Source of the DNA: Escherichia phage ECO07P2
Reading direction: 5' to 3' (one strand)
Sequence record: OP172785
DNA length: 64,000 nt
The notes below the pieces were generated by a model that searched no databases, was not told the origin of the DNA, and worked only from the letters and a program-made list of their open reading frames with translations. Each line of letters begins with the position of its first letter. Within the stretch, counting starts at the first letter, position 1. Below, piece after piece: positions 2,179 to 14,754 of the stretch. The position numbers and the translations under genes were made by a program.

Positions 2179-3189
2179 TCATTTATAATAACTTCGGTGG
2201 TTTTCAAGATAAACCCTCTCAAGGAAGTCATCCCAGAAACCCATGTCTACTTTTTGCTGCATACCGTTCTTAGAAGCTTCAATGGATGCTGCTTCTACTT
2301 GATCGACCACATCTTCCAAAAACTCTTGAACAGTTTTAAATGGATGTTTACCCAACTTCACGTCGAGAATAAATGGAGCATCTTGAAGTGGATAAACCAA
2401 GTCACCAGTTTTGTAAATTTCCAATAGTTGGAGTCCACCACGACAAGCATGACTCAGAGCTTTCCAGTCAATGCCCTCATTCGCTTCAGCCTTACGAGCA
2501 CGTTCGCCGTATTCAGCATCAAGTTTATTCAAAGACTGCTTAAGCTCAATAAGAGAAAGTGTTGTCTGATATTTACGACCCAACACAGTGTAAAACGTTT
2601 GTGGACCTGTTTTCTCATGATTATGGAACACCCATTCACAGAACTCGTTTTCTGGAAGACGATGCTTAATATCTTCAACTTTAGTGCGACGCTGCTTAAT
2701 GGAACCGTCTTCTTGGTAATCAACCCACTGATCAGGGATTTGATTAACTACTTTCAATACATCACGTAATGCGGCCAAACGAGAACCCTTGACACCATAT
2801 TTAGAAGCTTGCTTGCGGACATATCCTAAATAAGATTTCATGTTAGTTGTATAAAAACGAGAACGATTGTCTTGGATAAATTTCCATACATCAGGTAAAT
2901 CAGATTTAACCACTAGTTCAGGTGGAGTGTGGAGCATATCCAATGCTACAGTTTCACCATCTGCAGCTAATTTAAAGAAATACTTAAGACTGTATAGTTC
3001 ATGGTCAATATCATCTTTAGTGTTTTTAGATGATGTGTTGTTCGTGTTTTTACTCATATGCTCTTTAACATTTCCGATAAGAATATCGCGAGCAGGAGGA
3101 ACAAAGATTTCTTTAAAATCTACATCAGATTCTGGAGTAGAAGTTCCATAAAGATGACTACCAAAATAGCTTTTCATTACTGTTTTCAT
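2179..3189 (-). CDS. Pol-beta superfamily minimal nucleotidyltransferase-like protein (GS-x3-GT-x4-SDVD motif)
   Basis: 336 aa ORF; N-terminal FGSHLYGTSTPESDVDF matches the GS...[DE]x[DE] nucleotidyltransferase signature; long helical C-terminal region; family assignment by motif only. Confidence 0.6.
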   Translation of the reverse strand: MKTVMKSYFGSHLYGTSTPESDVDFKEIFVPPARDILIGNVKEHMSKNTNNTSSKNTKDDIDHELYSLKYFFKLAADGETVALDMLHTPPELVVKSDLPDVWKFIQDNRSRFYTTNMKSYLGYVRKQASKYGVKGSRLAALRDVLKVVNQIPDQWVDYQEDGSIKQRRTKVEDIKHRLPENEFCEWVFHNHEKTGPQTFYTVLGRKYQTTLSLIELKQSLNKLDAEYGERARKAEANEGIDWKALSHACRGGLQLLEIYKTGDLVYPLQDAPFILDVKLGKHPFKTVQEFLEDVVDQVEAASIEASKNGMQQKVDMGFWDDFLERVYLENHRSYYK

Positions 3190-10827: not shown

Positions 10828-11157
10828 TCAATTAGAAAATAAATTTATCCAAGATTGTTCTTTAATTAAAAATGGCTCAGAATCATATGCCATTAAACTT
10901 TGGGTGATTAGTCCTTTAAAAGGCCCATCAATAAATTCCATGGTAAAATATGGAATTTTATTCATTAATCTTGCATTAGGAGCAGTGCACAAAACTCTGC
11001 ATCCTTTGAATACGCCTTTTTGTAATTTGTATTGCTTAGGATAAAATTCGCTCAAGACGTTGTTATTTGCCAAAATTTCAAAATGATTCACCAATTTATT
11101 TTTAATAGTTTTTGGCGAAAAATAAAGATATTCGAAAAGTTGCGTATCTGTCATCAT
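10828..11157 (-). CDS. hypothetical protein (about 109 aa)
   Basis: start moved to ATG at 11157/11154 in an ATGATGA overlap with upstream stop. Confidence 0.45.
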   Translation of the reverse strand: MMTDTQLFEYLYFSPKTIKNKLVNHFEILANNNVLSEFYPKQYKLQKGVFKGCRVLCTAPNARLMNKIPYFTMEFIDGPFKGLITQSLMAYDSEPFLIKEQSWINLFSN

Positions 11158-11691
11158 TGCATTCCGATTACGAAAAACTGTGGACGAGTAATACCACCAG
11201 TACAGCATTTACTATTGCAGCAGTGTTGCACAGTTTCAATATGAATATCGTAAATTTTATCCATATCAGGAGATTTAACAGGCTCATCGATTATATACAA
11301 AATTCGAGAAAGCGATAAACCTCTGAACTTGCTACCTCTATTACCAACAAAACTACGGACAGAATCAGTAAATAAGCGGAATCGAATATCATCATTAGAA
11401 TAACGCGAAAATTCTTTTTTAATGTGGCCCGCAGAAATTTTAGCGTAAGCTGAAGTATTAGAAAGAACAATAACTGTTCCACCATCATACAGCCAATTAG
11501 CAGCAAAGTTAGTCACAGCAGTTGATTTACCAGATTGACGTCCACCATCTAGTCGAAGTGTGCAATACTGCTTAAGTAAGTCTTCAAATGGTGGGATATA
11601 ATCGTTTTTACAAATTTCTTCTACTCTAGCATCAGAATGGTGTGTAAAAGCATTCATCAGGGATAGATAAGGACCAGTTAAAAATGTTCTC
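11154..11691 (-). CDS. small P-loop NTPase-like protein
   Basis: about 179 aa from ATG 11691; Walker A-like GGRQSGKST and hydrophobic-DE stretch ILYIIDEP. Confidence 0.5.
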
Positions 11692-11727
11692 ATTTTATTC
11701 TCTCTAAATTTGGGCCATTCCATGGCG

Positions 11728-11762
11728 CATGAATTGTCCATTTCTGTATTTACCCATTACCG
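11728..11762 (-). repeat. copy 1 of a 35-bp conserved intergenic element (second copy at 12374-12408)
   Basis: 33/35 identity between the two copies; both sit 40-90 nt upstream of minus-strand gene starts. Confidence 0.6.
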
Positions 11763-11846
11763 CACTTGGGCTCGACCTTATTACAGGTTGGCGGGAATCC
11801 CTCATAGAACCATGAGGTCCAGCTTGTTCCCATATTTCTTATTTGC

Positions 11847-12320
11847 TTATTTGAATGATTTGACGTACTGAATAGAGCCTTTGCTATTCACGAAAGCGAT
11901 TTTACCATTTTTATTATACATGGTAGCAGTACGCTGATAGCCATAAGTTTGCTTACCAGATTGATAACCAACTAATGCAAAATTATCTTCACCCATTTTA
12001 TTCTGTTTAGCACGAATGCGTTCATGACCATGCGCCATAAGAACCTTAGCATCACCAGTTGCAATGGATCTACGAGTTTTTTCATCTTCAACTGTATTAA
12101 CAAAGTCGTCAAATGAATCAAATTTAGCGTGAGATTTATTATACAGTTTTCCATCTACTGCATAATTGTATCCCTGTACATCCATCTCAACTTCTGTACC
12201 ATCATCCAATACAGCAGTGATTTTTTGACCTTTTTTAAATTTCAAAAGATCAGTAAAAGATTCAGCAATAATTTGAGAATTAATAGCTGCCTCAGTAATA
12301 AATTCTTGATATGTTTTCAT
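11847..12320 (-). CDS. capsid-targeting-sequence (CTS) protein, internal-protein-like
   Basis: 157 aa; N-terminus MKTYQEFITEAA is the T4 CTS shared by IPI, IPII, IPIII and Alt and cut by gp21 after Glu. Confidence 0.7.
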   Translation of the reverse strand: MKTYQEFITEAAINSQIIAESFTDLLKFKKGQKITAVLDDGTEVEMDVQGYNYAVDGKLYNKSHAKFDSFDDFVNTVEDEKTRRSIATGDAKVLMAHGHERIRAKQNKMGEDNFALVGYQSGKQTYGYQRTATMYNKNGKIAFVNSKGSIQYVKSFK

Positions 12321-12360
12321 GTTATCCTTTAAATGTAAATAGTTTTATTCTTTAAGTTTT

Positions 12361-12408
12361 GGACAATTCACACGCATGAATTGTCCGTTTCTATATTTAC
12401 CCATTACC
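12361..12408 (-). repeat. copy 2 of conserved intergenic element, with perfect 10-bp inverted repeat
   Basis: ggacaattca-cacgca-tgaattgtcc hairpin (12361-12386) overlapping the 35-bp core shared with 11728-11762. Confidence 0.6.
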
Positions 12409-12427
12409 AGGTTCGAAATCGGCTTTA

Positions 12428-13006
12428 TTAAGAATTACCACGGGCTGCATTAGCAACGGCGTAAGCGTACTGAACATTAGCGTCTTTAAACGTACCTTTA
12501 GAGGTATCTAGTTCTGCCTTAAAGCCGCCTTTAGTCATAACCTCGGCGAATTCTTTACGGAAAGCCATTGCATCAAGGCTTCTCCATGACGATTTGTGCT
12601 TGGCGAATTCAAGACCAGCGTAGTTGACAGCCTTAGCTAATTTATTATCAATAACCCATTTACCAGCTTTAGGCACAAATACCGGGCCTTTCTGTTTGGA
12701 GAATAGTTTTAAATTCCAGCGACGAAGGTCACCGTCAGCTTTAACAAAAGCTGCGTCCAAGTTACTAGCAACAACATCTTGAATATGGCCAAATTTAAGC
12801 CCATCAACTTCAATATTTAGATCAGTACGCCAGCGAAGTCCTTCCCAAGCGAAAGCTTTAAAGTCAGAAGCCTTTGTAGCTAAATACCGTTCAATAGGAG
12901 CTGTTTTAGGGTCAAAGCCGTTTCCTCGGTAAGTCCACTCATCTTTATTAATGCCTTTGGCCTTTTCCACAGAAGCTTCAGTGATAAATTCTTTATAGGT
13001 TTTCAT
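12428..13006 (-). CDS. CTS protein (IPIII-sized internal protein)
   Basis: 192 aa; N-terminus MKTYKEFITEAS; length close to T4 IPIII (194 aa) but identity not verified. Confidence 0.7.
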   Translation of the reverse strand: MKTYKEFITEASVEKAKGINKDEWTYRGNGFDPKTAPIERYLATKASDFKAFAWEGLRWRTDLNIEVDGLKFGHIQDVVASNLDAAFVKADGDLRRWNLKLFSKQKGPVFVPKAGKWVIDNKLAKAVNYAGLEFAKHKSSWRSLDAMAFRKEFAEVMTKGGFKAELDTSKGTFKDANVQYAYAVANAARGNS

Positions 13007-13021
13007 GTGTTTCCTTTATTT

Positions 13022-13336
13022 TTATTCTTTAGGGAAGTTTTTAGAATATGCATCATAAAGCTTATTTCCAATACGGCGGAAAACTCTAGCCGCAAAACGA
13101 TTTTCTGGGTTTTTAATCATGATTTGCATCATATAAGTACCCGCGTCAGAAAGAGCTTCTTCATAGTACCCGTTAATTTCTTTAAGAGTCCTACGTTTAC
13201 CACCAGGACCATCAACAGTGATTTTCCATTTACCTGTAGAAGTGCGACTTGGCGGCTCAACTTGTTCAATCCAGATATAACCGCCTTCTACACGTTGGTT
13301 GGCGGATTCTGCAATAAATTCTTTATATGTTTTCAT
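13022..13336 (-). CDS. CTS protein (IPII-sized internal protein)
   Basis: 104 aa; N-terminus MKTYKEFIAESA; basic small protein. Confidence 0.7.
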   Translation of the reverse strand: MKTYKEFIAESANQRVEGGYIWIEQVEPPSRTSTGKWKITVDGPGGKRRTLKEINGYYEEALSDAGTYMMQIMIKNPENRFAARVFRRIGNKLYDAYSKNFPKE

Positions 13337-13366
13337 TTTTGTTTCCTTGTTTATTTTGATAGAGTA

Positions 13367-13396
13367 ATTATACCATATTAATACTTAAGCGTAAAC
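13367..13396 (-). promoter_or_regulatory. T4-type early promoter
   Basis: gtaaac 13391-13396, attata 13367-13372 (TATAAT), spacer 18. Confidence 0.6.
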
Positions 13397-13452
13397 CGTT
13401 TAAGCTTCACCGCCAGAAATAATTCCGAAGTTGTTAAATTGATACGAGTCAT
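13378..13452 (-). pseudogene. denV: relic of denV (endonuclease V) reduced to 24 codons
   Basis: minus-strand ATG at 13452 behind GGAGG encodes MTRINLTTSELFLAVKLKRFTLKY then stop; first 11 residues match T4 endonuclease V MTRINLTLVSEL as recalled. Confidence 0.5.
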
Positions 13453-13479
13453 AATTTCCTCCAAGTAGTTGATGAATGT

Positions 13480-13509
13480 ATAGTATCAAAGTCCTTGGAG
13501 GAAGTAAAC
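13480..13509 (-). promoter_or_regulatory. T4-type early promoter
   Basis: gtaaac 13504-13509, atagta 13480-13485, spacer 18. Confidence 0.6.
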
Positions 13510-13510
13510 A

Positions 13511-13792
13511 CTATTTTTCTGAAGCGCCTGAAATATATTTTTCAAGACGTTGTTTCATTAGCGAGCCGTTCTTAGCGATTTCTTCTGGTTTATCGCACAT
13601 ACGCAACAAGGCTTCAAGCTTAACGATATCGCTGGTACGTTCAAATTTGCGAGTATCTATCTTACTAGCAAGTTCAGAAATACGTGCTAATAGACTTTCA
13701 GCTTCAACCAAAGCTGCACCTAGCTTAGTTGCAAAGGTGTCAGTAGCTTCGTTAAGAATAGATTCTGATAAAAATTCACTATATGTTTTCAT
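13511..13792 (-). CDS. CTS protein (internal-protein-like, 93 aa)
   Basis: ATG at 13792 overlaps lysozyme stop; N-terminus [11 protein letters not shown]; track start at 13807 is a TTG. Confidence 0.65.
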
Positions 13793-14277
13793 ATATACGC
13801 TTTCCAAGTTCCTGTTTTAAATGTTGAGATTACGCGTTTCGCGCGATTAGGTGTCTGACGATACCATTTAGATTGGGCTAGATTTACTGCCGCTTCATCC
13901 CAGCGTTTTTGTTGAAGCATACGAAGAGAATTAGTAAAACCAGCGACGCCTGCTACACCCATTTGGAAGACCATATTGACCAACGCACATCGACGAACTG
14001 CATCTAAAGAATCATATACCGGTTTAAGTTTAGCATTACCCAAGATTCCGCGAACGGCTTTATCAACGTCTTCATTAAATAGCTTTTCAGCCTCATCAAG
14101 GGTAATTGTACCGTTGCATTTACGTCCGATCATTCTGTCAAGTTCAGCTTTAGCTACGGCTAAAGACGGGTTCTTTGTTACTAAATGGCCTATGCCAATC
14201 GTCCAAAAGCCTTCAGTGTCTTTGTATAAAGTCAGTCTAAGACCTTCATCTATACGCAACATTTCAAATATATTCAT
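13789..14277 (-). CDS. e: endolysin (T4 lysozyme e, muramidase)
   Basis: 162 aa; [28 protein letters not shown] matches T4 lysozyme with scattered substitutions. Confidence 0.95.
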
Positions 14278-14290
14278 AATACCTCCTAAG

Positions 14291-14311
14291 TATTTATAGA
14301 AGGTATTTATA
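14291..14311 (-). promoter_or_regulatory. two overlapping late promoters (TATAAATA on minus strand) upstream of e
   Basis: plus-strand tatttata at 14291-14298 and 14304-14311, 14-34 nt upstream of e start codon. Confidence 0.55.
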
Positions 14312-14313
14312 AA

Positions 14314-14754
14314 TTAAAAGAGGTTGTTCATTATTCGGTAAAGTGAAGGACCCATCACATATTGCCACTGAGTACGAGGAATAAGAGCAAAAGCGTCCAT
14401 CTCTGGAATCATAACGCCATCTTTATTTTCAAAATAAGACTCGCAATGGCAATTTCTAAACATCTCATGCTCTACTGGAATCGTATAATAAAATAATTGT
14501 AAGTCTTTATTACTAGAATATTTAAATACACCTAGGTCTTCTAGAAGGTCTGGATTATAATTGTTAAAACCTGTCTCTTCTAAACATTCTCTTCGTGCTG
14601 CATCTAATGCGCTTAAATCAGAACATTCTACACGACCTTTTGGAATATCCCAACGATGTGCCATCATTCCAGGCTTACGAGAACCAGTAACCCGACCCAT
14701 AAATAAATCTTTATCTTCTGTCATAAAGATAATACCAGCTGATAATGTTTTCAT
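14314..14754 (-). CDS. nudE: Nudix hydrolase NudE
   Basis: Nudix box GRVECSDLSALDAARRECLEETG; ATG at 14754 with AGGAAA SD (track start at 14769 is a TTG); directly downstream of e as in T4. Confidence 0.85.
   Translation of the reverse strand: MKTLSAGIIFMTEDKDLFMGRVTGSRKPGMMAHRWDIPKGRVECSDLSALDAARRECLEETGFNNYNPDLLEDLGVFKYSSNKDLQLFYYTIPVEHEMFRNCHCESYFENKDGVMIPEMDAFALIPRTQWQYVMGPSLYRIMNNLF

Follow-up and report, generated by a model that had tools for sequence, protein, structure and literature searches.

A 24-codon denV remnant in a Tequatrovirus is very probably the scar of a 628-bp deletion between short direct repeats

Between the lysozyme gene e and the internal-protein genes of Escherichia phage ECO07P2 lies a minus-strand open reading frame (ORF) of only 24 codons that begins like denV, which encodes the pyrimidine-dimer repair enzyme endonuclease V. 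Is this ORF what remains of denV, and if so, was the gene disrupted by the insertion of cargo genes, as the initial annotation had proposed, or lost in another way? We analyzed a 64-kb stretch (hereafter, the window) of the ~167-kb genome. The ORF is exactly as the initial annotation had described it: it lies behind a GGAGG site and encodes MTRINLTTSELFLAVKLKRFTLKY. We refer to it as the stub. The coordinates of the stub and of the features around it are given in Table 1.

The window is part of the genome of a Tequatrovirus, and its positions 12300 to 14400 matched 797 phage records. The closest record to the window was phage ECO07P3, with 97.7% identity over 95% of the first 25 kb; no near-identical phage record was found. 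On the minus strand, the gene order is a nudE homologue, e, CTS93, the stub, CTS104, ipIII, CTS157, and a homologue of T4 ORF 64.0. Genes bearing a capsid-targeting sequence (CTS, MKTYxEFIxE) are named here by protein length in amino acids, hence CTS93, CTS86, CTS104, and CTS157. Such genes do flank the stub on both sides, as had been noted, and the CTS-coding repeats number four, at 12289, 12975, 13305, and 13761. CTS93, ipIII, CTS157, and the CTS86 of phage W143 matched PHROG families of internal head or virion proteins, while the sole PHROG match of CTS104 was to a family of unknown function.

Table 1. Features of the denV stub and its surroundings in the window, in order along the minus strand
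Feature	Position	Strand	Remarks
Gene e, T4 lysozyme homologue	13789..14277	minus	locus anchor
CTS93, 93 aa, internal head protein family	13511..13792	minus	upstream neighbor of stub; family from PHROG
denV upstream promoter-like site, TTTACT-N17-TACTAT	13480..13508	minus	kept; fits TTTACW-N17-TAYWAT
denV Shine-Dalgarno sequence, GGAGG	13458..13462	minus	kept; identical in W143, RPN226, and TU01
Stub ORF, chimeric, 24 codons, MTRINLTTSELFLAVKLKRFTLKY then stop	13378..13452	minus	start ATG 13452..13450; denV codons 1-7 plus out-of-frame CTS86 3′ end
denV 5′ remnant, ATGACTCGTATCAATTTAACA, codons 1-7 (MTRINLT)	13432..13452	minus	identical to W143 denV nt 1-21 (L001 2450..2470)
Deletion junction, single TTTAACA	13432..13438	minus	two copies 628 bp apart in intact relatives
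CTS86 3′ remnant, own frame ...NFGIISGGEA then stop	13400..13431	minus	wrong frame in stub ORF
Early-type promoter of next gene, TTTACG-17-TATAAT with TG	13367..13395	minus	called by promoter scan
CTS104, 104 aa (MKTYKEFIAE...)	13022..13336	minus	downstream neighbor of stub; protein identical to W143 L001 3194..3508
ipIII homologue, 192 aa, with CTS	12428..13006	minus	PHROG
CTS157, 157 aa, DUF7412, internal virion protein	11847..12320	minus	family of the sole IP gene of T2 at this locus
Alternative, T4-type denV slot, 105 bp, empty	11742..11846	minus	after last IP gene, before ORF 64.0 homologue

At the peptide level, the stub had no significant match. A profile search returned no Pfam families at E ≤ 0.01 and no Pyr_excise match, while the control, intact W143 DenV, scored 53.4 bits on PF03013 (cut-off 23); in tblastn against T4 endonuclease V (EndoV) within the window, the stub gave E = 6.6. 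We established its identity instead by nucleotide colinearity with relatives. Window 13900..13432 corresponds to W143 (MZ189262) L001 2001..2470 with 98% identity over 470 nt, an alignment that spans the end of CTS93, the promoter-like site, the Shine-Dalgarno sequence, and the first 21 nt of denV. This colinearity bears out the proposal of a denV relic: by position, the stub is a true remnant of denV, at a locus where close relatives carry the full-length gene.

The likeness to EndoV is, however, shorter than the eleven residues that had been claimed. Colinearity with denV ends at nt 21, which is codon 7, and the final 7 nt of this remnant are common to both breakpoints of the event described below. 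Residues 8-24 derive from the out-of-frame 3′ end of CTS86 and from the spacer of the next promoter, within which the stop codon lies; in its own frame, the CTS86 tail ends in FNNFGIISGGEA before its stop. The resemblance of "TSEL" in the stub to "VSEL" of EndoV was considered and rejected as a coincidence, since these residues come from the frameshifted CTS86 tail. With homology stopping after codon 7, the stub lacks the ~138-aa length of the enzyme and the region of the catalytic Glu23 and of Arg22/Arg26 of T4 EndoV; positions 22-24 of the stub are L, K, and Y, from an unrelated frame. The Met-Thr-Arg N terminus (MTRINLT) is retained, and with it, nominally, the α-amino group of Thr2, the catalytic nucleophile of T4 EndoV, but this is insufficient for activity. 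With neither the glycosylase fold nor the catalytic Glu23, the stub peptide is best regarded as non-functional.

The far side of the break is also colinear with W143. Window 13438..12900 corresponds to L001 3092..3644 at 90% identity, and the left and right alignments overlap by 7 nt, TTTAACA. W143 contains two copies of this heptamer, at L001 2464 and 3092, and both are also present in phages TU01 and PaulHMueller; the window has one. Both flanks of the junction are colinear, but compared with the intact arrangement, which in W143 reads e, CTS93, denV (414 bp), CTS86, CTS104, ipIII, ipII, the window is missing 628 bp. Gone with this segment are 131 of the 138 denV codons (8-138) and, from CTS86, the first ~76. 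The breakpoints fall in denV codons 5-7 and CTS86 codons 74-76, the latter 32 nt before the CTS86 stop. Most phages have the intact arrangement: 159 of 261 phage records covered at least 80% of a 951-bp intact reference.

These alignments bear directly on the proposal that denV was disrupted by inserted cargo in the form of CTS or internal-protein genes. CTS genes do lie on either side of the stub, and cassette shuffling is a familiar feature of the internal-protein locus (PMC4122927). However, the same CTS genes occupy the same positions in phages whose denV is intact, no 3′ part of denV was found beyond any "insert" in the window, and the junction contains nothing foreign: both flanks are colinear with W143 and 628 bp are missing. 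An insertion would, moreover, need to complete two ORFs at once, whereas a deletion accounts in one step for the truncation of two genes, each of which relatives carry in full. We therefore favor a deletion spanning two genes and reject insertion as highly improbable.

How might this deletion have arisen? Identity over 7 nt at the junction would be expected by chance at ~8/4^7, or about 5e-4 by a rough estimate. From this 7-nt identity, we infer that the direct repeats probably either slipped or recombined through their short homology. Many spontaneous deletions of T4 have classically been traced to events of this kind, as in the rII deletion literature. We propose that the ancestor had the order e, CTS93, denV, CTS86, CTS104, ipIII, and that a single 628-bp deletion between the direct TTTAACA heptamers in denV and CTS86 removed most of both denV and the adjacent internal-head-protein gene. 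The length of the deletion is not divisible by 3 (628 = 3 × 209 + 1), so the retained denV start reads the CTS86 tail out of frame and stops in the next promoter, giving the 24-codon ORF. We consider it very probable that the stub is the scar of one such TTTAACA microhomology deletion in a Tequatrovirus.

The same junction was found in one other phage. Escherichia phage vB_EcoM-RPN226 (OL770073.2, Thailand) contains, in an unannotated segment at 142290..142463, the identical junction (ATGACTCGTATCAATTTAACA followed directly by ACTTC) in the same 24-codon frame. Among 50,697 records, RPN226 was the only one to show this junction in one contiguous alignment piece, with 96.1% identity. The exact junction had no matches in IMG/VR, in JGI metagenome contigs, or in GTDB genome contigs. 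The existence of RPN226 argues against an artefact of the laboratory stock or of assembly. Although short direct repeats can give rise to both polymerase slippage and assembly collapse, a repeat of 7 nt is far too short for the latter, and RPN226, which was independently isolated and sequenced, has the identical junction with several single-nucleotide differences around it. Since an independent isolate carries the same junction, assembly error is unlikely, and we assign very little probability to an artefact of either kind.

A deletion scar that keeps its expression signals might still be expressed. The initial annotation had placed the stub between two early promoters, and we agree, on different grounds for each. 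The downstream promoter (13395..13367) is of the strong sigma-70/T4-early type and was called by a promoter scan. The upstream site matches the E. coli consensus at 8 of 12 positions and falls below the threshold of the generic scan, but it fits the T4/PST early-promoter consensus, TTTACW-N17-TAYWAT (PMC4122927). The promoter, Shine-Dalgarno sequence, and ATG of denV are identical in TU01, PaulHMueller, and RPN226. Transcription of the stub probably continues and, the denV promoter, Shine-Dalgarno sequence, and ATG being intact, a short peptide may be made from it.

We also considered that the 24-codon ORF could be a functional micro-protein gene that is maintained by way of the denV expression signals. 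The intact promoter-like site, strong Shine-Dalgarno sequence, and ATG are compatible with this idea, as is the finding that the ORF is also open in RPN226, where it encodes MTRINLTTSELFLVVRLKQFTLKY. Yet the ORF is known from only two carriers, and these differ, as counted by eye, by three non-synonymous and two synonymous changes in 24 codons. It has no family match, its junction was not found in the IMG/VR, metagenome, or genome collections, and the stubs left by other denV deletions, described below, are unrelated to it. A selected micro-protein thus seems to us highly improbable, and we continue to regard the stub as a deletion scar.

The window and RPN226 share the left flank of the junction, with ~100 identical nt, but not the right flank, where 7 of 100 positions differ. 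On this right flank the window is W143-like (1-2 differences), whereas RPN226 resembles PaulHMueller (2 differences in 117 nt), in which denV and CTS86 are both intact. RPN226 also differs from the window in lacking CTS104, so that ipIII directly follows the stub. This could reflect two separate deletions between the same TTTAACA pair, each on its own haplotype, or a single old allele that later recombined within ~20 nt of the junction.

Other relatives have lost denV in other ways. In phage G4498 (L002 2451..2560), a 310-bp deletion internal to denV leaves the stub MTRPKRPLR, followed by a stop codon, and keeps the 3′ end of the gene. To judge by spacing alone, which is a G4498-like 499-500 bp in FL23, B1.1, Phaginator, JM10, FL44, BF15, F27, 235Ecol030PP, G8, Shinka, and FL12, we infer that this junction is common to ~10 other phages. 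In ECO07P3 (L004 1197..1711), a deletion of 1149 bp with the junction TCGCTG fuses denV codon 76 into the interior of ipIII and takes out the CTS genes between them; GenBank labels the two fragments, of 78 and 81 aa, "endonuclease V" and "internal protein III," respectively. In ZCEC14 (L005 2570..2710), a 572-bp deletion with the junction AAACGGT runs from denV codon 38 into the next promoter, at its -35 region, and leaves a 46-aa ORF. The G4498 and ZCEC14 breakpoints were read by eye from sequences with single-nucleotide differences near the junctions. Like the deletion in the window, all of these start inside denV, have junction homologies of 5-7 nt, and leave short frameshifted stubs.

Because their breakpoints and sizes differ, the deletions in the window, in the G4498-type phages, in ECO07P3, and in ZCEC14 are independent. 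On this comparison of breakpoints, there are at least three other independent denV deletions among relatives, and loss of denV is recurrent in this group of phages. Such loss is ordinary and unsurprising, since the gene is dispensable and the region that holds it is hyperplastic. A stronger reading is that denV is repeatedly selected against in enteric Tequatroviruses and that the TTTAACA pair is a recurrent deletion hotspot; the glycosylase could, for example, be costly or be sensed by host defence. This reading would suit the same junction on two right-flank haplotypes, the three or more further deletions of independent origin in denV, and a decayed relic at a second site, but we think it improbable.

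The second-site relic is in W143. In addition to the intact denV next to e, this phage carries (L001 4585..4651) a decayed, internally deleted denV with its own promoter and Shine-Dalgarno sequence, reading ATGACTCG joined to ATGAAAAAATT and, in translation, LDEKILMKPHWYKY, a stop codon, and GKNIY. It lies after ipII, at the T4-type slot. With an intact gene at one site and a relic at the other, denV evidently occupied two alternative slots in this lineage. The statement that the stub sits where denV belongs relative to e and the internal-protein genes holds for the W143-type order but not for T4, where denV follows ipII.

Small rearrangements were also seen elsewhere at the locus. In TU01/JS09-type phages, the CTS86 gene has its own in-frame internal deletion of ~144 bp, which leaves a 36-aa ORF, MYQEFITEADDKGPKVDVDDIGYDFNNFGIISGGKA (L012 1095..1205), a further sign that small deletions are frequent at the e/IP locus. 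A 58-nt direct repeat with 79% identity between copies occurs in the window at 11726..11783 and 12373..12430, in intergenic sequence downstream of CTS157 and ipIII. T4 has this element as well, after denV (L006 about 2194..2260; 90% over 187 nt to W143). The repeat had no Rfam match, and an Rfam scan of 11000..14500 yielded only sub-threshold chance hits; it may be a terminator or recombination module. The neighboring ORF 64.0 homologue (11154..11741, 195 aa) contains a P-loop-like GGRQSGKST and matched the terminase large subunit ATPase region weakly in PHROG (E = 3.7e-6). In T4, ORF 64.0 encodes a 25-kDa protein and lies downstream of denV.

Does the phage encode DenV elsewhere? Using tblastn with T4 and W143 DenV, we found no further denV-like sequence at E ≤ 1 in the 64-kb window, and the T4-type slot at 11742..11846 contained no denV remnant. 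As a proxy for the part of the genome outside the window, we searched the complete genome of RPN226 with the same two proteins and found no DenV-like sequence (best E = 3.9; positive control, 2.9e-86). Across phages, DenV is essentially single copy, with 1125 places in 1119 records. From these searches, the enzyme is likely to be gone from the phage, and with it glycosylase-initiated dimer repair. The initial annotation had spoken of a loss of phage-encoded UV repair, which is a reasonable reading for the glycosylase pathway only.

The general biological importance of this loss is small, but it has some practical consequences. T2 and several other sequenced Tequatroviruses also lack the EndoV glycosylase, and without it the phage would be expected to exceed T4 in UV sensitivity, which is relevant to the UV handling of stocks for phage therapy and biocontrol. 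One candidate injected internal head protein, CTS86, would also be lost. For annotation, short ORFs that start with MTRINLT at the e/IP locus are deletion scars and should be tagged as pseudogene remnants. For the hyperplastic internal-protein region of T4-like genomes, the stub also offers a clean natural example of deletion between short direct repeats.

How does this locus compare with known systems? With the denV of close relatives, the stub shares the promoter, Shine-Dalgarno sequence, start codon, and MTRINLT. Unlike T4 denV, whose product is a pyrimidine-dimer DNA glycosylase/AP lyase (PF03013), it lacks the Pyr_excise domain, and beyond MTRINLT its codons come from unrelated sequence read out of frame. 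Phage T2 (AP018813) is like the window in that denV is absent from the interval that separates e from the ORF 64.0 homologue, as it is from all 20 kb of T2 that we examined. At this position T2 carries a single CTS gene of 157 aa (L011 6757..7991), of the same family as CTS157 of the window. T2 differs in having no stub at the locus, while the window keeps a 21-nt 5′ remnant with its expression signals. The T2 ORF 64.0 homologue appears to be disrupted, being annotated as a 57-aa fragment only, and this record evidently contains many wrong product names; the 157-aa CTS gene, for example, is called "valyl tRNA synthetase modifier." In classical work (Streisinger 1956; Harm 1963), T2 was reportedly about twice as UV-sensitive as T4 and without v (denV) function, which fits the absence of denV from this locus. 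By analogy with this classical work, the phage studied here would be expected roughly to resemble T2 or T4 v-minus mutants in its UV sensitivity.

The other system for comparison is cassette shuffling. Shuffling mediated by PeSL modules in T4-like hyperplastic regions was reportedly described by Arbiol in 2010, and the IP locus was reportedly discussed in this context by Repoila in 1994. PeSL modules, which consist of an early promoter and a stem-loop, are implicated in cassette shuffling in the hyperplastic regions of T4-like phages (Comeau 2014, PMC4122927). We considered PeSL-mediated excision as the origin of the stub and rejected it, as the breakpoints are inside two coding sequences and both flanking promoters are retained. 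Like the PeSL systems, the window has a hyperplastic internal-protein locus with repeated promoter, Shine-Dalgarno, and CTS modules between genes. Unlike them, it appears to have undergone a plain short-direct-repeat deletion, with breakpoints that lie outside the promoter modules.
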